A DNA stretch of 64,000 bases, from NCBI GenBank assembly GCA_964409365.1, contig CAYPCX010000001.1, positions 312,699 to 376,698 on the forward strand. The letters are read 5' to 3'. The notes under the pieces are model-generated. The model was not told the DNA's origin. It saw only the letters and a list, made by a program, of their open reading frames with translations, and did no database searches. Source of the DNA: an uncultured Planctomycetia bacterium. GTDB lineage: Bacteria > Omnitrophota > Gorgyraeia > Tantalellales > Tantalellaceae. Shown here one piece after another: positions 5,954 to 63,999 of this stretch. The position numbers and the translations under genes were made by a program. Numbering within the stretch: position 1 is the first letter of the stretch; each line of letters begins with the position of its first letter.

Positions 5954-6477
5954 CGTTCGCATATTCGGCCGTTATCCTTGTCTATATTCTTGACCAGGCG
6001 TCTAAATTTCTCGCCAGCAGGCTGCTTTCCCCGGGGGAAAGCGTCCCGGTGATAAAGAACCTCCTACACATGACGCTTGTCTATAATACCGGCGCGGCCT
6101 TCGGGATGTTCAGTTCCCACCCTTATTTTTTTGTGGCGGTAGCCGTCCTTTCGGTCTTTTTGATCAATTATCTTTTCATACGCAAGGGGCATAAGCTCAT
6201 GGCCTTGGAAGGCGTGGCGCTCGGATTCATTCTCGCGGGGACTCTGGGGAACCTTACCGACCGCCTCCGCGTCGGGTACGTCATAGATTTTATAGATCTC
6301 AGGGTGTGGCCTGTGTTCAATCTCGCCGACAGCTTCATAACCATCGGTGCCGTGATGCTCGGGTGGTCCATCCTTTGGGGCGCCCGGGGACGTAAGACAG
6401 AGGACAGAGGACAGAAGACAGAAGGACGTAGATGCCAGGAGGATGTTAGATGTTGGTTGTTAGATGTTAGTTGTTAG
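5917..6477 (+). CDS. lspA: Lipoprotein signal peptidase (signal peptidase II); the C-terminal ~25 codons are read through heptamer-repeat DNA
   Basis: LDQASK, NTGAAFG, GNLTDR, FNLADS conserved blocks of peptidase A8; start uncertain (ATG 5908/5917 overlapping dksA-like gene). Confidence 0.8.
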   Translation: MSGKRGKIRRQVTFAYSAVILVYILDQASKFLASRLLSPGESVPVIKNLLHMTLVYNTGAAFGMFSSHPYFFVAVAVLSVFLINYLFIRKGHKLMALEGVALGFILAGTLGNLTDRLRVGYVIDFIDLRVWPVFNLADSFITIGAVMLGWSILWGARGRKTEDRGQKTEGRRCQEDVRCWLLDVSC

Positions 6478-6612
6478 TTTTTAGTCGTACAACTCATAAC
6501 TAACAATTCACAACTCAACACTTGATACTTGTCACTTTATCCTTTATCCTTGTTACTTGTCACTGTTCTCTGGTTACTGGAAACTGGTTACTGTTTACGA
6601 CAAGGCTCATAC
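6400..6612. repeat. Composite heptanucleotide tandem-repeat mosaic (GGACAGA, GATGTTA, TTGTTAG hairpin, CTTTATC, TACTGGT modules)
   Basis: Modules are shared, in the same order, with the copies at 11841-12225 and 15745-15975, and in inverted orientation with 42090-42295. Confidence 0.85.
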
Positions 6613-7383: not shown

Positions 7384-7533
7384 AAAGGGGAAAGTGTCCC
7401 GCGCGCAGTTCGGACATTTGAGAAGTTTTAACATTACAATGGAAAAGGCAAGAGTATCCCGTGCTCAAACAGTTTTTGCTTTGCAGCAGTGTCAACAGCA
7501 AAAAAACTGCGCGCGGGATATTCTTACCTTTTT
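7384..7533. repeat. ~95-nt long-hairpin intergenic element, copy A, plus an adjacent inverted half copy
   Basis: GGAAA.G..AGTATCCCGTGCTCAAACAGTTTTTGC-loop-CAGCAAAAAAACTGCGCGCGGGATA...CTTTTT; shared with copies at 28005, 53735, 62083, 63193. Confidence 0.8.
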
Positions 7534-7578
7534 CACAGCTCTGTCAAAGCCTCCCGGAAAAGTATTTTTTAGAAAAAC

Positions 7579-11840: not shown

Positions 11841-12225
11841 ATTTCAGGTCTCAGGTTGCAGGTCTCAGGAAACAGATGACAGAGGACAGAAGGACAGAGG
11901 ACAGAGGACAGAAGGACAGAGGACAGAGGACAGAGGACAGAAGGACGTAGATGCCAGGAGGATGTTAGATGTTGGATGTTAGATCTTTGATCGCAAAGAG
12001 CTAAGCGCGTAGAGCAAAGAATCACAGTTTTACGCTGTACGCTATGCCCTTTGCGCTATGCTTTTTTCACTTGTCACTTTATCCTTTATCCTTGTCACTT
12101 GTCACTGTTTACTGGCTACTGGTTACTGGTTACTGTTTACTGGTTACTGGTTACTGTTTACTGGCTACTGGTTACTGGTTACTGGCTACTGGTTACTGGT
12201 TACTCTGACACTATGACACTTACGC
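11841..12225. repeat. Composite heptanucleotide tandem-repeat mosaic (longest copy: about 10x GGACAGA, GATGTTA module, about 12x TACTGGT)
   Basis: Same module order as 6400-6612 and 15745-15975; ends with the TGACAC motif immediately before mreD. Confidence 0.85.
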
Positions 12226-12699
12226 ATGAAACAACGTATCGCACTATATGCATTGCTGGTGGTCTGTGTCCTGGTCCAGGTGATATTGATGCGGGATGCC
12301 GCCTGGTTCCCGGACATCATACTTATCATGGTCGTTTTTACCGGTATCTTCAGGGGCGGGACCGAGGCCCTTGCTTTGGGCATCGTGGCAGGTCTTTTGA
12401 GAGGGAGTTTTTCGGTGGGGACGCTCCCTCTGGATATTCTTATTTTTCCGCTGGTGGGCGTGATGTCCGCGGCCCTTGCTAGGATGTTCTACCGGCAGAA
12501 CCCGGCTATCCAGGTGTTGATCACCTCCGCCGCTCTCGCTGCTGTCGTGGCGGCGCACACGCTTTATCTTAACGTGGTAAGCGGCAACGACGTCGCGCTG
12601 TCATTCGTTTTCATGAACAGCCTGTGGACGCTGGCGCTGACGGTCATCCTCTCGCCGCTTATTTTCCTCATGCTTCGTCCTTTGTGGTCGGAGAACTAA
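12226..12699 (+). CDS. mreD: Rod shape-determining protein MreD
   Basis: 157 aa polytopic membrane protein directly between mreC and mrdA. Confidence 0.65.
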   Translation: MKQRIALYALLVVCVLVQVILMRDAAWFPDIILIMVVFTGIFRGGTEALALGIVAGLLRGSFSVGTLPLDILIFPLVGVMSAALARMFYRQNPAIQVLITSAALAAVVAAHTLYLNVVSGNDVALSFVFMNSLWTLALTVILSPLIFLMLRPLWSEN

Positions 12700-12702
12700 A
12701 TA

Positions 12703-14421
12703 ATGAGAACTAAAACATTAAGTTTTATATTCGTATTTTGCCTGGGGTTCCTACTTTTGGGGCTCTTTTTCACTCAGGTGATCCGGCACGAACGATACAG
12801 GGTCATGTCCGAGGAGAACAGGCTGAAGATAATCCCTCTTATGGCCCCGAGAGGTAGCATATACGACAGAAACGGCAAAGCCCTGGTGAAAGACGTCCTG
12901 AGTTTCGACGTCGCGGTCATCTATAGCCGCATAAAGGATAAGACCGCGCTGGCAGACATGCTGAGCTCCGAGCTGGAAATACCCGCGGAGACGATAACCC
13001 GGGAGATCGGGAAAGCCCGGAGGCAGCCGTTCACCCCTACCGTCGTAGCCTCCAATGTCGGTATAGGAAAGGCCATACAACTGGAAGAGTTGAGCGCGGA
13101 TTATCCCGGACTTCACCTGGATGTTTCGGCGAGACGGGAATATCTGCGCGGGGAGACCGCTTCGAACGTCCTTGGTTATCTCGGGATGATAAACAGGTCC
13201 GAGTTCGACAGGCTCAAGCATTACGGGTACAGTATAAGGGATCTTGTCGGCAGGGCGGGCCTCGAGAGAACGTACGATAATTATCTCAGAGGGCGCCACG
13301 GCGGAAAACAGGTCGAGGTGGACCATCGCGGACGCGAGATGACGACGCTGGGATTGAAAGAGCCAAGCTCCGGCAGGGACGTCAGACTTACGCTTGACCT
13401 TGAGTTGCAGGAATATTGTGACGGCCTTCTCAAGAACAAGAAGGGCGCTATTCTTGCCATGGATCCGGATACCGGCGCGATGATAGCCATGTCCAGCGCC
13501 CCGGGTTATGACCCCGGTGTTTTTGTGGACAGGGCCAGAAGCGTCGAAACGGTAGAGCTTCTGAATGATAATGAATATCCTCTAGTGAACAGGGCGATAA
13601 CGGGTGTGTATCCGCCCGGTTCGGTGTTCAAAGTGGTAGTAGCTTCCGGGGCGGTCGAGACCGCGAAGGCGGGAGAACATACGACCTTTGCCTGTTCCGG
13701 CGTCTTCACTCTCGGCAGGGCGACGTTCCACTGCTGGAGGGAAGGGGGGCACGGTCTCCTGGCCCTCAAGGACGCGATCAAGAATTCATGCAACGTTTAT
13801 TTCTTCCAGCTCGGGCTCCTGCTGGGCGCGGACGGCATCGCGGAGTTCGCCAGGAGGTTCGGTTTCGGAAGTCATACCGGCATCGACCTTCCGGGAGAGG
13901 CTCCCGGCACTGTACCCGACCCTGAATGGAAGGAGGAACGTTTCAATGACAAGTGGTATAAGGGGGATACCGTCAACTATTCCATCGGACAGGGGTATAT
14001 GCTGTGCACCCCTATCCAGGTAGCGAGGATGATGGCCGTTTTCGCGAACGACGGATTTATAGTAAGGCCGTACATAGTGAACAGGATAGGGAGCCTCGAT
14101 ACGGTAAGCGGTGAAAAGATCGAAGTGGATATCTCAGGTGATACGCTGAAGACCGTAAAGGAAGGCATGTGGAGGGTCGTGAACTCTCCCAGGGGCACGG
14201 GGATGAAAGCCAGGCTTCGCAACGTAGAGGTCGCCGGGAAGACCGGCACGGCGCAGACATCCCGGGGAAAGAACCACGGGTGGTTCGCGGGGTTCGCTCC
14301 TTACGACGATCCGAAGCTCGTTGTCGTCATTTTTGACGAATACGGCGGGAAAGGCGGATACTACGCCGCGCAGACGGCGGGGAAGGTGTTCAAAAAAGCC
14401 GATGAACTGGGACTATTGTAG
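12703..14421 (+). CDS. mrdA: Penicillin-binding protein 2 (peptidoglycan D,D-transpeptidase)
   Basis: N-terminal TM, PBP dimerisation domain, SxxK (GSVFKVV), SxN (NSCN) and KTG(T) motifs. Confidence 0.9.
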   Translation: MRTKTLSFIFVFCLGFLLLGLFFTQVIRHERYRVMSEENRLKIIPLMAPRGSIYDRNGKALVKDVLSFDVAVIYSRIKDKTALADMLSSELEIPAETITREIGKARRQPFTPTVVASNVGIGKAIQLEELSADYPGLHLDVSARREYLRGETASNVLGYLGMINRSEFDRLKHYGYSIRDLVGRAGLERTYDNYLRGRHGGKQVEVDHRGREMTTLGLKEPSSGRDVRLTLDLELQEYCDGLLKNKKGAILAMDPDTGAMIAMSSAPGYDPGVFVDRARSVETVELLNDNEYPLVNRAITGVYPPGSVFKVVVASGAVETAKAGEHTTFACSGVFTLGRATFHCWREGGHGLLALKDAIKNSCNVYFFQLGLLLGADGIAEFARRFGFGSHTGIDLPGEAPGTVPDPEWKEERFNDKWYKGDTVNYSIGQGYMLCTPIQVARMMAVFANDGFIVRPYIVNRIGSLDTVSGEKIEVDISGDTLKTVKEGMWRVVNSPRGTGMKARLRNVEVAGKTGTAQTSRGKNHGWFAGFAPYDDPKLVVVIFDEYGGKGGYYAAQTAGKVFKKADELGLL

Positions 14422-14424
14422 AGA

Positions 14425-14640
14425 GTCACAAGTTGCAAGTCACAAGTATCAAGTTACAAGTTGCAAGTCACAAGTCACAAGTTACAAGTTACAAGTCACA
14501 AGTCACAAGTTACAAGTCACAAGGAAAAAGGATAAAGTGTCGAATAACCCGTTTCCCGTAACCGGTTTCCAGATAGCTCTGGTCACTGGTTACTCAATAC
14601 TCGACACTCAATACTCAATACTTAATTTGCGAATGGGAGT
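14425..14640. repeat. Heptanucleotide tandem-repeat mosaic, CACAAGT/TACAAGT array (about 13 units) with inverted versions of the CTTTATC and TACTGGT modules
   Basis: Direct reading; reverse-complement relationship to modules in the 6400 and 11841 copies. Confidence 0.8.
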
Positions 14641-15741: not shown

Positions 15742-15744
15742 ACA

Positions 15745-15975
<231 letters not shown>

Positions 15976-15978
15976 GTT

Positions 15979-17718: not shown

Positions 17719-17770
17719 TCTTAAAACCTGAGACCTGAGACCTGAGACCTGGAACCTGTGGCCTGATTTT
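17719..17770. repeat. CCTGAGA heptamer tandem repeat (about 5 units)
   Basis: cttaaaacctgagacctgagacctgagacctggaacctgtggcctga; the same motif recurs at 32980-33012. Confidence 0.8.
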
Positions 17771-35579: not shown

Positions 35580-37871
35580 ATGAGACGCTATATTAGCGAC
35601 GGAAGAGGATTTACTCTTACCGAGGTCATGTTCGTTGCCGTGATCTCCGTGATAGTCATCGGGACCATCCTGTCGGCGTGGATATTCACCCACAAAGCCT
35701 GGACCATAGAAGGAGAGCGCACCCGCCTGCGCGTTGACATGACCAAGGGTATGGAGACGGTACAGGACGATATCCGGCTCTCAAGCGCGACTTACATTGT
35801 CGTGTATCCCGCTGACAGCGTTTCCGGGGCCTACACGGCGATAAGCATGCCGGTAGCCGATACGGACGCGGCCGGTTTTTACACCCTGGATGCCGGCGGC
35901 GCGATAGAATGGGACAGGACGGTCATCTACCATATCTTTACCGATGACGACGGCAACAAGACGTTAAGACGCACCGTCTATGATCCCCGGGATAACACCA
36001 TGAGCGATACCGACCGGTATAACCAGCTGGCGGCCGTCGTGTCGGCCGGCACCGGAGGGGTAGGTTCTACGACGGACACGGAATTCCTGGAGAACCTGGA
36101 CACGTTCGAGGTCGCGCCGCTGCCGCTGACGATAGATTTTTACGAGGATTCCGAGGACCCGGTCAGGATGGGCAAAGTGATATTCGGGTGGGCCCGGATG
36201 GATGCGGGGGACCATACGGTGCGCTTTGAGGTCACCGGAAAGAACGACGATTCGAGCGGTTACGCTTTCGGTCTTGATTACCTGAGGATCGAGCCCTGCG
36301 GAAGCCGCCGGGAGGCGGAATATTATAATTCTTCTTTCGCGCCTTCGGGAGCGCTGTCCTCCAACGGGAAGACCGTAAACAGGGTATATGATAATACGTG
36401 GAGCAATGACAACTATCTCGAATACCAGGCGACCGCCGAGGACGATTATATAACGATCACCGATTATTATGACCTCTGGAGGGAGTCCACGTTCTCGGAT
36501 TCGAGCAGGAACAACACGATGTTCTATGAAGAGGAAGTCCGCGTGAAGATAGAGCTTCCCGAAGACCGCGAGACAGGAAAAGAACAGATAAGGTGGTACG
36601 CGTCGGAGCAGTCGGGTGACACCCAGCAGGACGGGCGCGATGGTTACGCCAACCCGGGCGCCCCGACATCGGCGCCTTCCGAGCCGTTGGTCATCAGGAC
36701 CGTCATCAAGAACGCTTTTATAGATATGGACGCCGACGCGGGAGAGAAGGCGGATCTCGTAAGGGTAAAGTTCAAGTCGTCTTCTTCCGACGCGCTGAAG
36801 ATCGCGAAGGCATATATAACCCGCAGGGATCCCATTGTCGCCGACGACAGTAACCCCGAATATTATAACGGTAAGGTCAACCTTGACCCCTCCGGCAGGG
36901 ATATCGATGAGTATCATATGCATCAGCAGCTTTTCTTCGAGGATACGTCGACGGGGGACATGCTCGAGGGCGTGACCATAGAAGCCGGCGAAGAGGCGTG
37001 GACCGTATGGACAGCTTTCCCGCTGATCGTCAGAGATTCGGATTCGACCGATCTTGACTATCTCGTTACCTATTACGCGGATGACGTGTCTGATTCGAGC
37101 TGTAAATACTGGCAGGGGACGTCATACAACACGTGTTACATAACCGGGGCGGATTACTCGACGACAGAGCTCGGAAGAGCGGCCGGGACGCCCGTGTGGG
37201 GCAGCGATTATACTATCCGTTATTTTTCGGACGATATCTGCGCCGTGTCGGACATCGATACGTGGGAAAATGAAGGGACGGTGGAATCGAATATTTTCGA
37301 TACCGCAGAGGCATCCCCGGTGTACAACCAGATAAAGTGGTCTGAAGACAGACCGGCCGGCACTAACATTATCATGAAGACGCGTTCGTCCGAAGACCAG
37401 TTCATGGAAAACGCCACGGACTGGAGCCTCATTACGGGATCCGGCGTGAATCCCCATTCGCTTTCGATATCGAGTGACAGGTATGTACAGTTCATGGCCC
37501 AGATAAGTACCGACCCCTTCTGGGAATGCTCCGCCGGGACGCTTGCCTACGCGGATTACGTGGACGAGCAGAGAAATCTTGCCGGCGCACCGTATACGTT
37601 CCCTTCGCGCAGCGGGGAATATCTTGTGACGGGTCTTTATTCCGCGTGGATAGACGACGTCGAGATAGACTGGCCGGGCGAAGACAGGACCTGTGTGCTG
37701 AGCGGTTACATCGCCAGAAAGGACGATTACGGCCAGGTGAAAGTGAAAGTGGACGGGAAGGATATCTTCAGGGTCTACAGGGTGGATTTAGAGGTCTCGG
37801 CCGATTTTCAGGACCGCACGTTGGAGGAGGCCAGCAGCGTGGAACTTGAGCCAAGGAATACGGGACGGTGA
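35580..37871 (+). CDS. Large (763 aa) prepilin-like protein, candidate pilus-associated adhesin
   Basis: GRG|FTLTEVMFVAVISVIVIG prepilin N-terminus followed by a long Asp/Ser/Thr/Tyr-rich beta-type region. Confidence 0.55.
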   Translation: MRRYISDGRGFTLTEVMFVAVISVIVIGTILSAWIFTHKAWTIEGERTRLRVDMTKGMETVQDDIRLSSATYIVVYPADSVSGAYTAISMPVADTDAAGFYTLDAGGAIEWDRTVIYHIFTDDDGNKTLRRTVYDPRDNTMSDTDRYNQLAAVVSAGTGGVGSTTDTEFLENLDTFEVAPLPLTIDFYEDSEDPVRMGKVIFGWARMDAGDHTVRFEVTGKNDDSSGYAFGLDYLRIEPCGSRREAEYYNSSFAPSGALSSNGKTVNRVYDNTWSNDNYLEYQATAEDDYITITDYYDLWRESTFSDSSRNNTMFYEEEVRVKIELPEDRETGKEQIRWYASEQSGDTQQDGRDGYANPGAPTSAPSEPLVIRTVIKNAFIDMDADAGEKADLVRVKFKSSSSDALKIAKAYITRRDPIVADDSNPEYYNGKVNLDPSGRDIDEYHMHQQLFFEDTSTGDMLEGVTIEAGEEAWTVWTAFPLIVRDSDSTDLDYLVTYYADDVSDSSCKYWQGTSYNTCYITGADYSTTELGRAAGTPVWGSDYTIRYFSDDICAVSDIDTWENEGTVESNIFDTAEASPVYNQIKWSEDRPAGTNIIMKTRSSEDQFMENATDWSLITGSGVNPHSLSISSDRYVQFMAQISTDPFWECSAGTLAYADYVDEQRNLAGAPYTFPSRSGEYLVTGLYSAWIDDVEIDWPGEDRTCVLSGYIARKDDYGQVKVKVDGKDIFRVYRVDLEVSADFQDRTLEEASSVELEPRNTGR

Positions 37872-37960
37872 TCCAGGTTTCAGGTCTCAGGAGTATGGAG
37901 AAAACATGTTTTTCTCAAAGGCCCGAAACCCGACACCAGAAACCTGACACCTGGACTTAC
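37865..37960. repeat. ~90-nt hairpin-plus-heptamer element, family 3, copy 2 (contains the perfect palindrome AAAACATGTTTT)
   Basis: ccaggtttcaggtctcaggagtatggagaaaacatgtttttctcaaaggcccgaaacccgacaccagaaacctgacacctgg. Confidence 0.75.
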
Positions 37961-37972
37961 GGAAAAGAAGGT

Positions 37973-39127
37973 ATGCTTGGGAAGTTGATCAAAAAAACAG
38001 GTGATCAAAAAGGCATAGTTCTCGTGGTCGTGATGTCGTTCGCGGCGCTAATCGTCCTGAGTACGCTCTCTCTCAGTACTATAGTAAAGCGGGATATCGA
38101 GCTGGTCGGGTCCGTCAAGTACAGGGCGCAGGCGAGATATCTGGCGGAGGCCGGTATCAGTCACGCCCTGGCCAGGATAAAGCAGGAAGATTTCAGCTCA
38201 AGGTCGGATCTGAACAGCAGCCTGGATATCGGTTCGTACAGCGTGAGCTTCTCGGAGGCCGGCGGCAGGTACCTGGTGACGTCCGTGGGCACCGCTTACG
38301 GGATGACAAGAACGGTCACGGCAGAGATAGAAAATCTCGCGCCGACGGCCATGCGGTACAGCTGTATCGCGGGGAACAATATCGGGATCAACGGCTCCGG
38401 TAAGACCGTTGATATTGAAGGGGATATCCACGCGAACAATAACGTCTATCTGAAATGCTCCTGGCTTTCGGGAAGTATCACGATAACGGGAGACGTTTCG
38501 GCGACGGGTATCGTCAAGGAAGGTTCGAAGCTCCACCGGAGAGACGGGTTCTGGGGCGGCTGGCAGGATTGGAAAGTGTATATCAACGGTTTGAACGACG
38601 ACAAAGCGGAAGTTGGCGAGGACGACAGTAAAGCCAGCTTCCCGAGCTTTGATTACGAAAAGTACCGGGAGGAGGCGATAGATTCCGGCGATTATTATGA
38701 TACGGACCAGGTCTTCGACAGTGTGAACCTGGATCCCGGTAACGGTATAGTATTCGTGGACGGGCGCGTCACGTTCGAGGGGAATTCGACGATAAGGGGG
38801 GGCGTTGTAGCCGATGATATCACGATTAACGGCGCCCTGACCCAGTACAAAAGCGGAGAAAGGAACGTTATCATAGCGAGGGAAGGGGACATCGGCCTAA
38901 GGGGGGACCTGGATGTGGAGGAGGCGGTCGTGTATTCGGTGAAAGATATCCGGACCGATGCGAGCGGCGTGGATATTACGATAGACGGCGTCATGATGGC
39001 CCGGCGGGATATCAATATGTGGACCAATCCCGCTAATATGGATTATGATTACGTGGAGATATATCCGAGCGATGTCGGTTCGGGAGGCGAAGAACAGACA
39101 TTCGCTGTTGTGAGCTGGAATAGGTGA
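37973..39127 (+). CDS. PilX-N-domain minor pilin-like protein with C-terminal beta-helix-like repeats (paralog 1)
   Basis: KGIVLVVVMSFAALIVLSTLSLS...YRAQARYLAEAGISHALARIK resembles the PilX N-terminal domain; repetitive hydrophobic/Gly C-terminal segments. Confidence 0.55.
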   Translation: MLGKLIKKTGDQKGIVLVVVMSFAALIVLSTLSLSTIVKRDIELVGSVKYRAQARYLAEAGISHALARIKQEDFSSRSDLNSSLDIGSYSVSFSEAGGRYLVTSVGTAYGMTRTVTAEIENLAPTAMRYSCIAGNNIGINGSGKTVDIEGDIHANNNVYLKCSWLSGSITITGDVSATGIVKEGSKLHRRDGFWGGWQDWKVYINGLNDDKAEVGEDDSKASFPSFDYEKYREEAIDSGDYYDTDQVFDSVNLDPGNGIVFVDGRVTFEGNSTIRGGVVADDITINGALTQYKSGERNVIIAREGDIGLRGDLDVEEAVVYSVKDIRTDASGVDITIDGVMMARRDINMWTNPANMDYDYVEIYPSDVGSGGEEQTFAVVSWNR

Positions 39128-39159
39128 GCCAGGTGTCAGGGGTGAAAGGGGGCGGAGCG

Positions 39160-40326
39160 ATGAAGGTGCGACTTTTGACTGGAAGAACAGCAGCAAGTAC
39201 GCCCCATCAGAAGGGGGCGGTGCTTGTCGTGGTCATAGCTTTCGCGACATTGGTCGTTATGTCCACGCTGGCCTTGTCCACCATGGTGCAGCGGGATGCC
39301 GAGCTCATCCGTGTCACCAGGGACCGCTCGCAGGCCCAGTATGTGGCGGAGGCCGGCTTGCACCACGCGCTTGCGAGGTTCAAGAGCGAGAATTTCGCGT
39401 CCAGGTCCGACTTTACCGGGGATCTGGACACCGGTTCATACAGCGTTACTTTTTCCGAAGAAAGCGGCAGGCACCTGATAACTTCCATAGGCACCGTGGG
39501 CAATAATTCAAAAACCGCTTCCATCGAGGTCGAGAACCTCATGCCGACGGCCATGTTCTACCTTTCGGCCGCGGGTAACGACATAAGGATAAACTCGTTC
39601 GTTGCGGACGCGGAAATAAACGGGGACATACACGCCAATAACGACGTCTATCTGAAATCCGGTCCGCTTATAGCGTTCCTAATGATAACCGGGGACGTCT
39701 CGGCCACGGGCGTTGTGAAGGAAGGTTCGCGTCTGCACCAGGCGGACGGGCTCTTCGGGGGATTCCTTGACCTTCACGTCTATATCAACGGGGTGAACCA
39801 GGATGACGCTTTTGTCGACGAAGGTGCGCCCAGGGTCATTTTCCCGACGTTCAATTATGACCAGTACCGCCAGGCGGCGGAGGATTCAGGCGAGTATTAT
39901 GACACGGATACCACCTTTAACGGCCAGACCGTCGATCCTTCCGAGGGCATAGTATACGTGAACGGGAACGCCAGGTTCGAAGGGAACTGCACGATAAACG
40001 GGGGCGTCGTGGCCGACGAGATAACGGTAACAGGGACACTGAACCAGGTCAAAAAGGGGAACCGTAACGTCGTCATAGCCAAGGAGGGGGATATAGGTAT
40101 CCTGGGCCGTCTCTACACGGAGGAAGCCGTCGTATACGCGGGAAGGGATATACGTTCCCTGCAGGTCCTGGCCGAGATCGAGATCAACGGGGTGATCATG
40201 GCACGCAGGGACATATACATGTGGAATTTCCTTACGCGGATAGATTACAACTACGTGGAGACCTATCCGACCGATGTCGGGGATCAGGACGACCAGCAGT
40301 TCGGCATTATCAGCTGGAACCTGTAA
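39160..40326 (+). CDS. PilX-N-domain minor pilin-like protein (paralog 2)
   Basis: Same architecture; long identical stretches with paralog 3 (MPTAMFYLSAAGNDIRINSFVA.AEINGDIHANNDVYLKSGPLIAFL). Confidence 0.55.
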   Translation: MKVRLLTGRTAASTPHQKGAVLVVVIAFATLVVMSTLALSTMVQRDAELIRVTRDRSQAQYVAEAGLHHALARFKSENFASRSDFTGDLDTGSYSVTFSEESGRHLITSIGTVGNNSKTASIEVENLMPTAMFYLSAAGNDIRINSFVADAEINGDIHANNDVYLKSGPLIAFLMITGDVSATGVVKEGSRLHQADGLFGGFLDLHVYINGVNQDDAFVDEGAPRVIFPTFNYDQYRQAAEDSGEYYDTDTTFNGQTVDPSEGIVYVNGNARFEGNCTINGGVVADEITVTGTLNQVKKGNRNVVIAKEGDIGILGRLYTEEAVVYAGRDIRSLQVLAEIEINGVIMARRDIYMWNFLTRIDYNYVETYPTDVGDQDDQQFGIISWNL

Positions 40327-40357: not shown

Positions 40358-40470
40358 GAAAAGGAAAGGGTATCCCGTGCTCAAAAAGTAACCAGTTTCC
40401 AGTAACCAGAAAAAAATAATCTGGTAACGGGTTACGGGCAACTGGTTACTACGTTAGGTCTCAGATGTCA
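40358..40470. repeat. Partial copy of the ~95-nt hairpin element (5' arm only) fused to a CCAGTAACC/GGTTACTGG inverted heptamer patch
   Basis: aaaggaaagggtatcccgtgctcaaaaagtaaccagtttccagtaaccag...ggtaacgggttacgggcaactggttact. Confidence 0.6.
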
Positions 40471-40487: not shown

Positions 40488-41654
40488 ATGAGAAAAAAAG
40501 GCGTTTTAGACATGACCGGATCCATGTTAACGGACCGGAAGGGGACAGTGCTCATGGTCGTAATGGCGTTCGTGACGCTGATGGTCCTGACCACGCTTGC
40601 CCTCTCCAATATGGTGCAGAGGGATGCCGAGCTTATCCGGGTGACCAGGGGCCGTTCACAGGCGCAGTACGTGGCCGAAGCGGGTCTTCACCACGCCCTT
40701 GCCAGGTTCAAGACCGAGAGTTTCGCTTCAAGGGAGGATTTCACGGGGAATTTAGACCTGGGTTCTTACGAGGTGACGTTCGCCACGAAGCACGGGAGAC
40801 ATCTTGTAACCTCGGTCGGGACGGTCGGCGACATGTCCAGGACGGTCTCCATGGAGGTCGAGAGCCTGATGCCGACGGCCATGTTCTACCTTTCGGCCGC
40901 GGGTAACGACATAAGGATAAACTCTTTCGTGGCGAATGCAGAAATAAACGGCGATATCCATGCCAACAATGATGTCTATCTGAAATCCGGCCCGCTCATC
41001 GCGTTTCTCACTATTACCGGTGATGTGTCCGCGACGGGTGTCGTAAAGGAGGGTTCCAAACTTCATGCGGCAGACGGGCTGTTGGGAGCTTATCTTGACC
41101 TCCACGTATATATCAACGGGATGAACGAGGATACCGCTACCGTTTACGAAGAAGAAAGCAGGCTGACTTTCCCCACGTTCGATTATGACCAGTACCGTCA
41201 GGTGGCAATAGATTCGGGATCATATTATGACACCGATCAGGTTTTCAGCGGCGAGACCTTCGATCCGGCCGAAGGCATCGTCTACGTGGACGGCACCGTG
41301 AGATTTGAGGGCAATTGCACGGTCAACGGCGGTATCATTGCCGATGATATAACCATAGCAGGGACTTTGAACCAGGTAAAAAAGGCCAACCGGAACGTTA
41401 TTCTGGCGAAAGAAGGAGATATAGGTGTACTGGGCCGGCTTTACACGGAAGAAGCCGTTGTATACGCGGGAAGGGATATACGCTCTTTGCAGATAGGGGC
41501 CGATATCGAGGTCAACGGGTTGATAATGGCCCGTAGGGATATTTACATGTGGAATTTCCTTACCATGATCGACTATAACTATGTGGAGACCTACCCGGAC
41601 GATGTCGGTGAACAGGACGACCAGCAGTTCGGCATTATCAGCTGGAACCTGTGA
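40488..41654 (+). CDS. PilX-N-domain minor pilin-like protein (paralog 3)
   Basis: Near-identical to paralog 2 over most of its length; SD aaggaagggg upstream. Confidence 0.55.
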   Translation: MRKKGVLDMTGSMLTDRKGTVLMVVMAFVTLMVLTTLALSNMVQRDAELIRVTRGRSQAQYVAEAGLHHALARFKTESFASREDFTGNLDLGSYEVTFATKHGRHLVTSVGTVGDMSRTVSMEVESLMPTAMFYLSAAGNDIRINSFVANAEINGDIHANNDVYLKSGPLIAFLTITGDVSATGVVKEGSKLHAADGLLGAYLDLHVYINGMNEDTATVYEEESRLTFPTFDYDQYRQVAIDSGSYYDTDQVFSGETFDPAEGIVYVDGTVRFEGNCTVNGGIIADDITIAGTLNQVKKANRNVILAKEGDIGVLGRLYTEEAVVYAGRDIRSLQIGADIEVNGLIMARRDIYMWNFLTMIDYNYVETYPDDVGEQDDQQFGIISWNL

Positions 41655-42089: not shown

Positions 42090-42295
42090 AACAGATGTCA
42101 GAAAACAGAGGACAGGGAACAGTGATAAGTAACACGGATAAAGGAAAAAGGATAAAGTGCCAAGTATCAAGTGTTGAGTTGTGAGTTGTTAGTTATGAGT
42201 TGTACGACTAAGAACTAAAAACTAACAACTAAAAACTAACAACTAACATCTTACATCTGACTTCTGTATTCTGGAACGATGCGATAAACGAGGAG
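42090..42295. repeat. Composite heptamer mosaic in inverted orientation, between rplU and rpmA
   Basis: caagtatcaagtgttgagttgtgagttgttagttatgagttgtacgactaa is the reverse complement of 6491-6541 with one mismatch. Confidence 0.85.
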
Positions 42296-45865: not shown

Positions 45866-45955
45866 ATTAGGTGACAGGTGGAGGAAGAAGGCATGGTTTC
45901 CCAACGGTCTAAAACCTGAAACTTGGAACTTGAAACCTGAAACTTGAGGCCTGAA
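45866..45955. repeat. ~90-nt hairpin-plus-heptamer element, family 3, copy 3 (GAAACCT/GAAACTT heptamer tail)
   Basis: gtgacaggtggaggaagaaggcatggtttcccaacggtctaaaacctgaaacttggaacttgaaacctgaaacttgaggcctgaa. Confidence 0.75.
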
Positions 45956-46528
45956 ATGAAAATAGGACTGCTTGGAGGCACATTCAATCCCGTCCACATC
46001 GGGCATATGATACTTGCCCAGGAGTGCTGGTCACAGCTTGTGCTGGACAAGGTCATCTTCGTACCCGCGCGCATACCGCCTCTTAAGGAAATGGAAGGAA
46101 AGGCGTCGGACGAAGACCGCATGAACATGGTGCGCATGGCGGTCGAGGGGGATGACAGGTTCGAAACGTCCTCTTACGAGATGGGAAGGGACGAGGAGTC
46201 ATATTCGATCAACACGATAAAGCATTTCAGGAAGGAATACAGCCCGGACACCGAGTTGTTTTTCCTGACAGGCGCCGACGCGGCGGAGAGCCTTTCGATG
46301 TGGAAGGACATCGACGAGATCCTCGAGATGACGAATTTCGTGATCGCGACCCGTCCCGGATGGGGAGAGAAGAGCCCTTACGAAAGGAAGGTCTGGCGGA
46401 TAGTAATCCCCCAGATAGAGGTATCCTCCAGCATGATAAGAGAGCGGATACGGAACCGGGAGCCCATCGATTATCTGGTGCCGGCCCCGGTGGTGAAATA
46501 CATAATGAACAAAGGCCTGTATAAATAA
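45956..46528 (+). CDS. nadD: Nicotinate-nucleotide adenylyltransferase
   Basis: MKIGLLGGTFNPVHIGH (H/T-x-G-H motif) at N-term, about 190 aa. Confidence 0.85.
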   Translation: MKIGLLGGTFNPVHIGHMILAQECWSQLVLDKVIFVPARIPPLKEMEGKASDEDRMNMVRMAVEGDDRFETSSYEMGRDEESYSINTIKHFRKEYSPDTELFFLTGADAAESLSMWKDIDEILEMTNFVIATRPGWGEKSPYERKVWRIVIPQIEVSSSMIRERIRNREPIDYLVPAPVVKYIMNKGLYK

Positions 46529-53734: not shown

Positions 53735-53832
53735 GAAAAAGGAAAGGACCTCCCGTGCTCAAACAGTTTTTGCCGCGCCCATTTCCAACAGCAAAAAAAC
53801 TGCGCGCGGGAGACCATTTCCTTTTTTTATGG
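53735..53832. repeat. ~95-nt long-hairpin intergenic element, copy C
   Basis: GGAAAGGACCTCCCGTGCTCAAACAGTTTTTGC-cgcgcccatttccaaCAGCAAAAAAACTGCGCGCGGGAGACCATTTCCTTTTT. Confidence 0.85.
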
Positions 53833-59476: not shown

Positions 59477-60314
59477 AAAGAAGGGTGAGAAGATCGACCG
59501 GAAATGGCTCGTCTTTACGGCCGCCGGCGCTTTTCTGGCAGGGATCATACTTTCAGCCGCTTTTTTGATGTTGAGACCGCCTGTTAGGGAGGTCCCGGTC
59601 CCTGAAAAAGAAGCGCCCGTTATCCGTCCGGCGGAGAAGGAACCCGTCGTTGCGCTCGTACTGGATGATTTCGGTTACACGCAGAAGAACCTTGAGGGGG
59701 TCAGGGATATAGGCGCGCCGGTCACGCTGGCGGTGCTTCCCAACACGCCGTACGCCGGCGCCGTATGCTCTTTTGCAAGGAAGAACGGAATAGAAGTGAT
59801 ACTGCACATGCCCATGGAGCCCAGGGACAGGACGATCAGCCTCGAAAAGGACACGTTGACCACGGAGATGTCCCCGGCGGAGGTAAGAAATATCATAGAT
59901 GAAGCGTACGCTGCTGTACCCGGGGCAGACGGGATGTCCAACCACCAGGGATCCGGCGCTACCGCGGACGAACAGCTCATGACCGTTGTCCTGGAGGATA
60001 TCAAACAGAGAAGACAGTTCTTCCTCGACAGCATGACCACGGGCAGGTCGGTCTGCGGCGAGGTGGCGGGTCGCCTGAAAGTCCCCTGCGTTAAAAGGGA
60101 TATCTTTCTGGACCACGAAATGGACAGGGAATCGATACGAAAGCAGATGGCGAAGCTTGACAGCATTGCCCGCAGGAAAGGCAGGGCCGTGGCGATAGGG
60201 CATGACCGCGAAATGACGGTATCCGTGCTCCGGGAGGTGGTCCCGAAGATGCGAGAGAACGGGATCAGGTTCATTTCACTTTCGGAAATGGTAGATAAAA
60301 CAGAAGGCAGATGA
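59436..60314 (+). CDS. Divergent polysaccharide deacetylase family protein (YibQ-like)
   Basis: Lys-rich N-term plus TM, then VALVLDDFGY...ILHMPMEP matching pfam04748-type proteins; 41-nt overlap with ctpA. Confidence 0.65.
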   Translation: MKKKQGKKKQKKSKKKGEKIDRKWLVFTAAGAFLAGIILSAAFLMLRPPVREVPVPEKEAPVIRPAEKEPVVALVLDDFGYTQKNLEGVRDIGAPVTLAVLPNTPYAGAVCSFARKNGIEVILHMPMEPRDRTISLEKDTLTTEMSPAEVRNIIDEAYAAVPGADGMSNHQGSGATADEQLMTVVLEDIKQRRQFFLDSMTTGRSVCGEVAGRLKVPCVKRDIFLDHEMDRESIRKQMAKLDSIARRKGRAVAIGHDREMTVSVLREVVPKMRENGIRFISLSEMVDKTEGR

Positions 60315-60360
60315 CAGAAGGCAGAGGACAGAAGGCAGAGGACAGAGGACAGAAGATATG
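60300..60360. repeat. GAAGGCA/GGACAGA heptamer tandem repeat
   Basis: cagaaggcagatgacagaaggcagaggacagaaggcagaggacagaggacagaagat. Confidence 0.8.
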
Positions 60361-62082: not shown

Positions 62083-62176
62083 GGAAAAGGAAAGAGTATC
62101 CCGTGCTCGAACAGTTTTTGCATTGCCACACCATCAACAGCAAAAAAACTCGCACGTGACACTCTTCCCTTTTGAG
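62083..62176. repeat. ~95-nt long-hairpin intergenic element, copy D (subfamily 2: ...CTCGAACAG...CTCGCACGTGACACTCTT)
   Basis: Direct reading; near-identical to copy E. Confidence 0.85.
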
Positions 62177-62250
62177 TAGCATCGCTCGAAGTGGTTCTGA
62201 CATCAATAATGCAAGCTGATCCCTGATTTGGTAAAAAAAAGGAGGTTGAT

Positions 62251-62802
62251 ATGAGGAAGAGGAAAGAAGAGATTAAACCGCAGACCGAAGAGAAAGTACT
62301 GGACGTGCATGCCGGTATGCAAGGCACGCTGCGTTTCGACGATCCGGTGAACCTGAGGATCAACGGGAGATTCGAAGGCACGCTGGACACCAAGGGCAAG
62401 CTCATGATCGGCCAGAAAGCCGACATCAAGGCCGACATAACCGGCGAGACCATCTCCATAGCCGGAAATGTGAGCGGCAACATCAAGGCGGCGAAGAGCC
62501 TTTCCCTTGACGCCACTGCTAAGCTTGCCGGTGACGTCGAGACCCCGGAACTGGCTATCGAGAAAGGCGCGGTCCTCAACGGACATCTGCGGATGAGCGC
62601 CCAGGGCGGCAGCACCGGCAGTGAGGCCAGGGGCGACTGGATGACGATCAACCAGTTGAGCAAGTATCTCGAGGTGGAATCCAACAAGGTCACCGAGTGG
62701 GCGAACAGCGGCATGCTTCCCGGCACGAGAGAAGGCGGCGAGTGGGTGTTCGAAAAAGCCAAGGTCGACCAGTGGATAGCAGAAGGTAAGGTAAAAGCGT
62801 AA
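62251..62802 (+). CDS. Bactofilin-domain protein fused to a C-terminal excisionase-type (HTH_17-like) DNA-binding domain
   Basis: Bactofilin beta-helix repeats (GTLDTKGKLMIGQKADIKADITGETISIAGNVSGNIKA...) then MTINQLSKYLEV...GMLPGTREGGEWVFEK..VDQWI. Confidence 0.65.
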   Translation: MRKRKEEIKPQTEEKVLDVHAGMQGTLRFDDPVNLRINGRFEGTLDTKGKLMIGQKADIKADITGETISIAGNVSGNIKAAKSLSLDATAKLAGDVETPELAIEKGAVLNGHLRMSAQGGSTGSEARGDWMTINQLSKYLEVESNKVTEWANSGMLPGTREGGEWVFEKAKVDQWIAEGKVKA

Positions 62803-62803
62803 C

Positions 62804-63166
62804 ATGCCGGAAAAACTATTGACACTTCAGGAACTGTCGGAATACCTCGGTGTAAAGCAGGAGAAGATAACCGCGCTTGTCGACGAGGGCGTCATCTCCG
62901 CGTACAGGATAGGCGGCGAACTTCTGAGGTTCAGAAAAGACCAGATAGACGCCACGCGCACCGAGATAGAATCCAGGGTGACCGGGGCCGACAAGATAGC
63001 CGTCAGCGAGGCCCGCAAGAAGGTAAAAGAAAGGGCCCAGCCCCTGAGCGACAGGAGCCGGTCCACGTTCCGGGACAGGATCGCGGATTTCTTTTACTTC
63101 AACGATTTCTATATCGTCTCGGCGGTCCTTATAATCGCTTTATTGATAGTGATCGTGCGCGGATAG
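62804..63166 (+). CDS. Excisionase-family HTH domain protein with a C-terminal transmembrane anchor
   Basis: LTLQELSEYLGVKQEKITALVDEGVISAYRIGGELLRFRKDQID HTH_17 pattern; C-terminal FYIVSAVLIIALLIVIV TM segment. Confidence 0.6.
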   Translation: MPEKLLTLQELSEYLGVKQEKITALVDEGVISAYRIGGELLRFRKDQIDATRTEIESRVTGADKIAVSEARKKVKERAQPLSDRSRSTFRDRIADFFYFNDFYIVSAVLIIALLIVIVRG

Positions 63167-63192
63167 TTTGAACTGTTTCAGCACTGAAATGA

Positions 63193-63283
63193 AACAAGGA
63201 AAGAGCATCCCGTGCTCGGACAGTTTTTACTTTGCCGCGTGATCGACAGCAAAAAAACTCGCACGTGACACTCTTTCCTTTTG
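63193..63283. repeat. ~95-nt long-hairpin intergenic element, copy E (subfamily 2)
   Basis: GGAAAGAGCATCCCGTGCTCGGACAGTTTTTAC-tttgccgcgtgatcgaCAGCAAAAAAACTCGCACGTGACACTCTTTCCTTTT. Confidence 0.85.
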
Positions 63284-63339
63284 TATAGCCGCGTTAAAAA
63301 CAGCCCGAACATGTGAACGCGCGGGAACATTTCAAAGAA

Positions 63340-63999
63340 ATGCGAAAGATATCAAACCATCTCACCTTTATTATCACAGCATTACTGGTCTGCAGTGTTG
63401 TGTCCGCGGACACGGTCATCCTCAAGGACGGGAAGAGGATGAAGGGGCTCATACTGGACGAATACAGCGACCGGGTGGTTTTTTCCACCGTTGAGGGTGA
63501 GAAGACGATAATGAAATCCGACATCCGTTCGGCCGTCTATGACAGCGAAGCGAAAGCCATGATGCAGAAGGGCAGGAACCAGCAGAAAAAAGGGCAGCAC
63601 ATAAAGGCGTACTATACCTACGAAAAGGTGCTCGAGCTCGACCCCGGGCTCGAAGAGGCCCGCCAGCGGTATAACTATCTCAGACGGTTCCTGGAGACGA
63701 AACTCAAGAGGGATATCGTCGATGACGTCAGGGCGCGCGGAGAAAGAGAAAAGGGCGCGGAGAGCATCGACCCTCTTCGGGAGGCCAGGGACGAGCTGGG
63801 GATCGTCCTCGTCCCCGGGGAAAAGTTCGTCCGCGTCGGAAAGGTCCTGGACAGGAATGATACGGTCACAAGATCGGGGATACGCGAGGGGGACAGGATC
63901 GTATCGGTCTGGGGAGAGATGGCCGCGTATCTTGACCCGGATGAAGTGGCCGGTATGATGCTTTCCTCAAGAGAGATAAAGGTAGAGATAGAGCGGACG
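63340..63999 (+). CDS. Secreted protein with TPR-like helix pair and PDZ domain, 5' part (continues past window end)
   Basis: Signal peptide MRKISNHLTFIITALLVCSVVSA, then GIVLVPGEKFVRVGKV...GIREGDRIVSVWGE PDZ-like fold; not in the ORF track because there is no stop in the window. Confidence 0.5.
   Translation, partial: MRKISNHLTFIITALLVCSVVSADTVILKDGKRMKGLILDEYSDRVVFSTVEGEKTIMKSDIRSAVYDSEAKAMMQKGRNQQKKGQHIKAYYTYEKVLELDPGLEEARQRYNYLRRFLETKLKRDIVDDVRARGEREKGAESIDPLREARDELGIVLVPGEKFVRVGKVLDRNDTVTRSGIREGDRIVSVWGEMAAYLDPDEVAGMMLSSREIKVEIERT

Follow-up and report, generated by a model that had tools for sequence, protein, structure and literature searches.

The 64,000-nucleotide (nt) stretch analyzed here, referred to as the window (positions 312,699 to 376,698 of the forward strand of contig CAYPCX010000001.1, from an uncultured bacterium assigned to the phylum Omnitrophota), carries two adjacent open reading frames (ORFs) on the forward strand. 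The first, gene A, encodes a bactofilin fused to a winged helix-turn-helix (wHTH) domain, and the second, gene B, encodes a small wHTH protein ending in a transmembrane helix. Upstream of gene A in the window are tsaD and a gene of the mgtC family (Pfam), and downstream of gene B is a gene for a PDZ protein. A ~95-nt hairpin repeat is present in the gap on either side of the pair (copies D and E). The first-pass annotation, which was made from the sequence alone, had read the two repeats as the borders of a cassette-like unit and had suggested either a DNA-positioning or anchoring device or a mobile regulatory cassette. Both ORFs are present as it described, and D and E do flank exactly these two genes. 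The features of the gene pair are as follows.

62239 to 62245, + strand: Shine-Dalgarno sequence of gene A, AAGGAGG (read from the sequence)
62251 to 62802, + strand: gene A, bactofilin-wHTH fusion, 183 amino acids (aa) (ORF, Pfam, and AlphaFold2 model)
62302 to 62589, + strand: bactofilin beta-helix domain, gene A aa 18 to 113 (PF04519, E value of 5.4e-25)
62590 to 62637, + strand: low-complexity flexible linker, gene A aa 114 to 129 (per-residue model confidence [pLDDT] and alignment)
62638 to 62787, + strand: wHTH of gene A, aa 130 to 179, Xis/BldC/RacA/Nu1 class (HTH_17, E value of 2.7e-9)
62804 to 63166, + strand: gene B, predicted tail-anchored wHTH protein, 120 aa (ORF and homologs)
62816 to 62953, + strand: wHTH of gene B, aa 5 to 50, paralog of the gene A wHTH (HTH_17, E value of 1.7e-8)
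63086 to 63112, + strand: juxtamembrane motif DFFYFNDFY, gene B aa 95 to 103 (alignment of homologs)
63104 to 63160, + strand: C-terminal transmembrane helix, gene B aa 101 to 119 (Kyte-Doolittle hydropathy and AlphaFold2)

Searches with the two proteins recovered 567 homologs of gene A and 412 homologs of gene B, the latter ~120 aa long. Among the 120 gene A matches listed, all 120 possess both the bactofilin and the HTH domains, with 59 to 77% identity, and every one of them that carries a taxon name is from Omnitrophota/Omnitrophica; the taxon naming of the gene B homologs is the same. Their database labels are generic, such as "polymer-forming cytoskeletal protein" and "excisionase family DNA binding protein." A search of 1.84 billion cluster representatives with gene A gave just 22 clusters at an E value of ≤1e-30. 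Full-length, two-domain relatives reach down to 25 to 40% identity, the other cluster matches are plain bactofilins, and the taxon names attached to the cluster matches are Omnitrophota or "PVC group" only. A relative is encoded in 462 genomes of a species-level collection, and the 80 best species-level loci from this collection were used for all of the synteny counts given here. Gene B lies directly 3' of gene A in 79 of the 80 loci, the exception being a contig end, and tsaD, usually with mgtC, is directly upstream of the pair. The wider gene order is gatCAB-ctpB-deacetylase-tsaD-mgtC-A-B-(...)-polA-coaE-rho-rpmE-prfA, and a relative with 62% protein identity has gatB-ctpB-deacetylase-tsaD-mgtC-A-B-polA-coaE-rho-rpmE-prfA, as in the window. 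Within the operon, the start codon of gene B is 1 nt past the stop codon of gene A; this 1-nt gap is found in 34 of 79 loci and a gap of ≤31 nt in 66 of 79, and from this arrangement gene A and gene B are probably translationally coupled. A strong ribosome-binding site like the AAGGAGG of gene A also precedes the orthologs in nearly all 80 loci. No relative of gene A was found in the IMG/VR viral contigs, and no integrase, transposase, or mobile-element gene was called within 10 kb on either side of the operon. Gene A and gene B form a core operon of Omnitrophota that has been inherited vertically and is conserved phylum-wide. Sequence comparison indicates that the pair is ancient, with its architecture kept down to 25% identity, and it appears to be confined to Omnitrophota/PVC. 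A role of either protein as an excisionase or recombination directionality factor was considered and rejected because of the lack of an integrase partner, the housekeeping synteny, and the absence of the fusion from viral contigs.

The two halves of the gene A protein are both well-recognized domains. The region from aa 18 to 113 matches Bactofilin (PF04519/DUF583) with 87.9 bits against a cutoff of 27.9, and the region from aa 130 to 179 matches HTH_17 (PF12728) with 37.6 bits against a gathering cutoff of 27. An AlphaFold2 model built from a 57-sequence alignment (mean pLDDT of 79) contains the beta-helix at aa 17 to 113 with a pLDDT of >90 and the wHTH at aa 130 to 177 with a pLDDT of ~80. 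These are joined by a linker (aa 114 to 129) whose pLDDT falls below 50 at aa 119 to 127 and whose sequence and length vary in the family alignment. In Foldseek searches, the beta-helix matches the bactofilins of Thermus (6rib, TM score of 0.75) and Caulobacter (2n3d, TM score of 0.76). The hydrophobic residue at the terminal polymerization interface is present in gene A as L109, which aligns with F105 of the Thermus bactofilin, the residue altered in the "F105R mutant" entry 6ria, and this position is L, I, or V throughout the family. F105 is taken here to be a polymerization-interface residue of the Thermus protein. The N terminus of gene A differs from that of bactofilins that bind the membrane on their own. 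Membrane binding of the BacA type requires F2, K4, and K7 in the N-terminal peptide, and a bitopic client protein is able to replace the bactofilin membrane-targeting sequence (PMC12448750). A BacA-type targeting sequence, which is typical of bactofilins and does not define the family, was found neither in gene A, which starts with MRKRK, nor in the 57 aligned members; in all 57, M comes first, positions 2 to 5 are occupied almost entirely by Arg or Lys, and no hydrophobic residue is present at position 2.

The gene B protein matches HTH_17 at aa 5 to 50 (35.0 bits against a cutoff of 27), and the TIGR01764 "excise" profile is passed by both proteins, with 32.6 bits for gene A and 44.5 bits for gene B against a cutoff of 28.8. 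In the NCBIfam scan, this generic domain was the only match to gene A and gene B, with no specific family. The C terminus of gene B is strongly hydrophobic (Kyte-Doolittle 19-residue mean of 2.64 at aa 102 to 120), and its AlphaFold2 model comprises the wHTH at aa 5 to 58, variable helices, and a terminal helix at aa 101 to 119. As only a single residue (Gly120) follows the transmembrane helix, gene B is predicted to be a tail anchor with its wHTH on the cytoplasmic side, a topology that makes it a plausible candidate for a membrane anchor. Between the wHTH and the membrane, a variable linker of ~40 residues leads to the aromatic-acidic motif DFFYFNDFY, which adjoins and enters the transmembrane helix. 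In 31 diverse homologs, D95, F99, D101, F102, and Y103 are invariant, and F96 and Y98 are conserved in ≥90%. The conservation of this motif exceeds that of the transmembrane helix itself, which suggests that it is a specific interaction site. Pfam, TIGR01764, AlphaFold2, and Foldseek thus agree with the first-pass annotation on a bactofilin with a C-terminal excisionase-type HTH, and HTH_17, hydropathy, and AlphaFold2 agree with it on a partner that has the same HTH type and a C-terminal transmembrane helix; all of the profile matches that it had called for lie above the curated cutoffs, and both the beta-helix and the wHTH of the fusion were modeled.

In contrast to the gene pair, the repeats that enclose it are not a feature of the operon across species. 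A covariance model (R1) located five full copies of the hairpin in the window, all on the + strand; the window also holds one remnant:

62083 to 62177, + strand: copy D, in the gap between mgtC and gene A (96.9 bits, E value of 1.4e-20)
63192 to 63286, + strand: copy E, between gene B and the PDZ-protein gene (94.6 bits, E value of 4.8e-20)
7441 to 7536, + strand: copy between lgt and a pseudouridine-synthase gene (106.2 bits)
28010 to 28104, + strand: copy 1 nt past the stop codon of a TPR-protein gene, facing a convergent gene (98.5 bits)
53735 to 53829, + strand: copy between pdxA and ksgA (96.1 bits)
40361 to 40388, + strand: remnant of 28 nt, 5' arm only with 3 mismatches, joined to heptamer repeats

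The coordinates of the flanking repeats agree within 3 nt with those reported previously. Copies D and E are indeed the closest pair in the family, and at 86 to 88% identity, "almost identical" slightly overstates their likeness. Copy D lies 74 nt upstream of the gene A start codon, and copy E lies 26 nt past the gene B stop codon. Two start codons are candidates for the downstream PDZ-protein gene, the GTG at 63313 of the public gene call and an ATG at 63351 that opens a typical signal peptide (MRKISNHLTFIITALLVCSVVSA); depending on this choice, the distance from copy E to the gene is 26 nt (GTG) or 64 nt (ATG).

An exact-pattern scan of metagenome contigs revealed more hairpin copies in JGI sample Ga0180432, on three contigs (L088, L089, and L090) with G+C contents of 0.50 to 0.53, similar to that of the window. 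By tblastx, these contigs have nothing in common with the window except the repeats, and no close genes either. On L090, copies at 12562 to 12656 and 13647 to 13742, which are 1,085 nt apart, bracket a single radical-SAM gene; the possibility that this locus is the orthologous bactofilin operon was rejected on the basis of tblastn and an ORF listing. In the same sample, two minus-strand copies flank minus-strand genes, and one copy stands before a 670-aa ORF that was judged by eye to be TonB-receptor-like. All 10 copies compared are oriented like their neighboring genes. Their alignment forms a long hairpin of 30 pairs, in which 91.5% of the cells are paired and 11 pairs show compensatory changes, and none of 500 shuffles paired equally well. 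With folding energies of -28 to -47 kcal/mol, the stem is stable, and the apical core (CCCGTGCTC..CAGTTTTTGC-loop-CAGCAAAAAAACTGCGCGCGGGA) is conserved, whereas the basal stem, which forms the ends of the element, is the most variable part and changes with compensation. No Rfam family reached its gathering score anywhere in the window, and none matched either flanking hairpin at E values of up to 5, so a known RNA family was discarded as an identity for the element.

These data bear directly on the proposal that the hairpins mark the two ends of a cassette that carries both genes and is mobile or recombining, such as an integron cassette with attC sites, a miniature inverted-repeat transposable element, or a composite element. 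Such a cassette could account for two similar, co-oriented, structured repeats that flank exactly two genes and are each other's closest relatives. However, synteny places the pair at one and the same position in 79 of 80 species, and not a single copy of the hairpin was found in the orthologous loci of the 80 species (829 kb). Between mgtC and gene A lie 206 nt in the window, against a median gap of 43 nt for 68 other species, which indicates that copy D is an insertion. The repeat also stands beside unrelated core genes, here (Lgt and pseudouridine synthase, the TPR protein, and PdxA and KsgA) and in another genome (the radical-SAM gene), so the specific association with the pair that had been proposed does not hold. 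When five copies were placed at random in the ~55 intergenic gaps, two of them ended up no more than two genes apart in 56% of trials, and the bracketing of gene A and gene B by D and E is therefore not beyond chance. No consistent attC core (GTTRRRY, R'/R'') was present at the hairpin ends in the alignment, no target-site duplication was seen by eye in the 10 copies, and no copies were found in viral contigs. A mobile cassette is therefore very improbable and was set aside on the grounds of the synteny, the absence of the repeat from the loci of relatives, the lack of recombinase genes near the operon, and the lack of viral copies; an integron gene cassette in particular is at odds with the flanked genes being core genes in a fixed order. 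The close similarity of D and E, which the first-pass annotation had placed in a "subfamily 2," has a counterpart on L090, where the two copies are 83% identical (88% for D and E). In both genomes, neighboring copies ~1.1 kb apart are mutual closest relatives, which suggests local duplication or gene conversion, and this explains the apparent subfamily.

The hairpins could instead be RNA regulators specific to this operon, with D in the 5' untranslated region (UTR) and E in the 3' UTR, tuning gene A and gene B. Their distances to the start of gene A and the stop of gene B, the covariation of the structure, and a subclade of relatives with a different small hairpin directly 5' of the gene A Shine-Dalgarno sequence are compatible with this. 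The element nevertheless follows unrelated genes, in one case facing a convergent gene and having no downstream target, it is absent from the orthologous loci, and it has no Rfam match. Notable structure (z ≤ -2) 3' of gene B occurs in just 13 of 77 species, so a conserved hairpin at this site was rejected, and the operon is not consistently flanked by hairpins across species. Operon-specific regulation by D and E is accordingly quite unlikely. The small hairpin of the Omnitrophota subclade is a separate observation: a UUCG-loop hairpin (GATTTTTGCTTCGCAAAAATC) is found once per locus, adjoining the Shine-Dalgarno sequence of the bactofilin-HTH gene on its 5' side (L050, 5950 to 5970; L051, 5935 to 5955; L055, 5950 to 5970; and L083, 440 to 460), with variants in L062 and L079, and it could be a 5'-UTR element or an mgtC terminator.

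As an intergenic repeat, the hairpin is structured, specific to its lineage, and generic in this genome. It would be part of the transcript of the upstream gene and would function as RNA, either terminating or attenuating transcription or stabilizing the 3' end in the way that REP and ERIC elements do, a role for which we consider the prospects to be even. A run of 4 to 7 T's ends four of the five window copies, yet these T's pair with a 5' A run, and a consensus terminator scanner cannot score loops as long as that of the hairpin. Several points weigh against this role: the copy at 28010 and several metagenome copies have no T run, which speaks against a terminator, there is scant promoter room between the hairpin and the next gene, and the orientation of the hairpins relative to genes is inseparable from their orientation relative to replication. 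Like REP/BIME, ERIC, and long-stem intrinsic terminators, the hairpin is a dispersed, presumably transcribed, imperfect palindrome in post-gene intergenic gaps, and, as in REP and ERIC elements, its structure is kept by compensatory change. It differs from REP elements in its greater length (~95 nt), conserved apical core, and variable basal stem, and from the REP/ERIC class in that all 10 copies have one orientation relative to genes and belong to no Rfam family; no RAYT transposase was seen for it. The hairpin is a new member of this broad class of structured intergenic repeats.

At the remnant (40361 to 40388), model R1 gave no full match. From 40361 to 40464, the hairpin 5' arm is joined directly to heptamer repeats, which form an inverted repeat of their own, and this arm is either a decayed hairpin copy or part of a chimera of the two repeat systems. 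Tandemly repeated heptamers, among them (CAGAAGA)n, (ACTGGTT)n, and (CAAGTCA)n, fill many intergenic gaps of the window (6377 to 6600, 11845 to 12217, 14396 to 14615, 15743 to 15978, 17727 to 17768, 29258 to 29289, 33376 to 33441, 40383 to 40464, 42093 to 42258, 45915 to 45956, and 60287 to 60356). They occur in both orientations, some being mutual reverse complements (families D1 to D7 and I1 to I25), and they constitute a second intergenic repeat system of the genome that is more abundant than the hairpin. Three tandem paralogous ORFs of ~400 aa (37868 to 39127, 39124 to 40326, and 40488 to 41654; direct-repeat families D3 and D11) may encode beta-helical proteins. In Pfam scans of two of them, no domain was found in the second, and the third gave a subthreshold Bactofilin match (E value of 1.5e-4, 22.4 bits against a cutoff of 27.9).

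The wHTHs of gene A and gene B share 36% identity (E value of 4e-10) and are, by this sequence similarity, paralogs. In Foldseek searches, the gene A wHTH matches BldC (root mean square deviation [rmsd] of 1.2 to 1.4 Å, 28% identity), RacA, Pukovnik Xis, and the N-terminal domains of lambda-type small terminases, and the gene B protein matches BldC, Xis, RacA, CbpM, and MerR-family regulators; across both wHTHs, the rmsd to BldC is 1.2 to 1.7 Å. At the sequence level, gene B matches Pukovnik Xis (E value of 1.4e-3), the best match of a gene A wHTH profile in the PDB is a weak one to Bacillus subtilis RacA (E value of 0.0024), and the gene A wHTH and Nu1-type wHTHs have the common signature W..G(M/L)P..G.E.vF..W. 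The wHTHs of the Xis/BldC/RacA/Nu1 class are architectural proteins that form cooperative multimers on DNA (PMC5859096).

Starting from the observed architecture, the tight coupling of the genes, and the co-conservation of gene A and gene B, a mechanism can be proposed. The gene A protein would polymerize into a bactofilin filament and, because it has no BacA-type membrane-targeting sequence (MRKRK, without Phe2), would reach the inner membrane through the gene B protein, whose synthesis would be translationally coupled to its own. A regular wHTH array displayed on the filament would, together with the cytoplasmic wHTH of gene B, tether or organize DNA at the membrane; such an array would suit DNA tethering, the class being one of cooperative multimers. 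The arrangement would be the counterpart of chromosome anchoring by RacA-DivIVA and of BacNOP-PadC-ParB. A membrane-linked bactofilin scaffold whose RacA/BldC/Xis-like domains tether DNA is, in our judgment, a serious possibility that falls somewhat short of being probable. The broader proposal, that the pair is an unrecognized Omnitrophota-wide apparatus for chromosome-membrane tethering, in which a nucleotide-independent filament binds DNA directly and not via ParB-type adapters, is put forward tentatively.

Several features weigh against DNA tethering. The wHTH domains are net acidic across the families, with a median charge of -2 for gene A and -1 for gene B. The base-contacting Arg of BldC and RacA is an invariant Glu or Asp in gene A (E149), and the BldC wing residues His46-Arg47-Arg48 correspond to Glu164-Trp165-Val166; this mapping was done by eye, and the numbering of the BldC sequence used agrees with the residues in the paper. 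DNA binding by BldC is abolished by H46E and by R30A (PMC5859096). Furthermore, CbpM and DafA have the same wHTH fold and serve as pure protein-binding modules, and no conserved operator-like motif was found upstream of gene A in the 80 species; that region showed a strong Shine-Dalgarno sequence, hairpins that differ between species, and some boxes resembling TATAAT.

The charge pattern could be read as that of a protein-protein adaptor, in which the two wHTHs heterodimerize or the gene A wHTH binds the gene B protein, gene B is a plain anchor, no DNA is bound, and the scaffold serves cell envelope or cell shape functions, as most bactofilins do. The acidic residues of gene A at positions where BldC and RacA are basic, the fold matches to CbpM and DafA, MerR-like domains that bind chaperones and not DNA, the ability of a bitopic client to stand in for a membrane-targeting sequence (PMC12448750), and the tight coupling of the two genes are all consistent with such an adaptor. 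However, the closest sequence and profile matches are the DNA-binding proteins RacA, lambda-type Nu1, Xis, and BldC, and gene B conserves the basic wing residues R35, R42, R44, and K45. Nu1-type wHTH domains bind DNA without a basic wing, and the lambda Nu1 domain is presumably not basic either, as counted on its sequence. Since these Nu1-type domains share the gene A signature, neither net charge nor the BldC contact residues are decisive on DNA binding, and the charge and contact-residue pattern of gene A suggests a binding mode different from that of BldC. A role as an adaptor only is considered unlikely.

A regulatory switch similar to that of BacR in B. subtilis is the other explanation to be weighed. 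Here, one or both wHTH proteins would act as transcription factors, and sequestration on the bactofilin polymer or at the membrane would control whether they reach DNA, for example, through proteolytic release of the gene B wHTH or competition between filament and DNA binding, and the operon would mainly regulate expression, perhaps under envelope stress. BacR provides a precedent, as it binds DNA or bactofilin and never both together (PMC13649987). The layout of gene B is that of a membrane-tethered transcription factor, and several gene A orthologs have their own TATAAT-like promoter. Against this, neither protein has a DUF4004 domain (no match to it at E values of up to 1), no conserved operator-like repeat was seen upstream in the 80 species, and no gene for a protease or sensor shows consistent linkage to the pair; the spread across the phylum, the 59 to 77% identity among the 120 matches listed, and the fixed neighborhood fit a structural role better. 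We regard a switch of this kind as rather improbable. Taken as a whole, the account made up of a conserved operon, the proposed tethering, and a generic hairpin is the best explanation of the locus, and we hold it, with some reserve, to be the probable one.

Bactofilins are known as membrane-associated scaffolds for client proteins, and the connections to DNA described for them to date are indirect (PadC/ParB in Myxococcus) or regulatory (BacR in Bacillus). Omnitrophota is an uncultivated phylum, many members of which have very small cells and host-dependent lifestyles, and the pair is a compact candidate for the means by which their cells attach or organize the nucleoid. It could also show how a bactofilin reaches the membrane without the usual targeting sequence. 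In practical terms, hairpin "brackets" should not be taken for cassette boundaries anywhere in this genome. The first-pass annotation did not know of the fusion as a characterized system, and the literature bears this out: no paper was found that joins bactofilins with Omnitrophota or describes a bactofilin-HTH fusion, and a recent survey of 14,337 bactofilins likewise describes no such fusion.

The pair combines known kinds of protein, a bactofilin scaffold and MerR-like wHTH domains, in an operon that is itself uncharacterized. With BldC, Xis, and lambda gpNu1 (6ama, 6amk, 4j2n, 1j9i, and 7lwr), it shares the minimal MerR-like wHTH fold, and proteins of this type assemble on repeated DNA sites as multimers, either cooperatively or head to tail (PMC5859096). 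Such behavior would fit presentation of the domain on a polymer. These relatives are free-standing proteins of 55 to 70 aa, and no recombinase or terminase partner lies near the operon here. In addition, the BldC family profile (NF033787) scores 17.7 bits, far below its cutoff of 77, and the basic contact residues Arg30, His46, Arg47, and Arg48 of BldC are replaced in gene A by Glu149, Glu164, Trp165, and Val166. The chromosome-anchoring protein RacA (5i41 and 5i44), a Foldseek match of both proteins, joins a MerR-like wHTH to a module through which DNA is attached to a membrane-associated scaffold. RacA binds DivIVA at the pole. It does so with a C-terminal coiled coil, not with a bactofilin or a transmembrane helix, and no coiled-coil module is present in the AlphaFold2 models of gene A or gene B; its base-contacting Arg is also the residue that is Glu or Asp in gene A. 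In the BacNOP-PadC-ParABS system of Myxococcus xanthus, a bactofilin scaffold positions DNA-binding segregation proteins and shapes the nucleoid (PMC5703909). In that system, ParB and the adapter PadC, itself bearing a ParB-like domain, provide an indirect link to DNA, whereas here the wHTH is built into the bactofilin. A parallel in gene arrangement is BacR (YhbD, DUF4004), an HTH protein that is cotranscribed with the bactofilins BacE and BacF and that these recruit to the membrane (PMC13649987). Both systems place an HTH protein and a bactofilin in one operon and link DNA binding, predicted in the present case, to a bactofilin scaffold. BacR is a separate DUF4004 protein, and BacE and BacF have membrane affinity of their own; in the Omnitrophota operon, by contrast, an HTH_17 wHTH is covalently fused to the bactofilin, and the second wHTH protein is a predicted integral, tail-anchored membrane protein.

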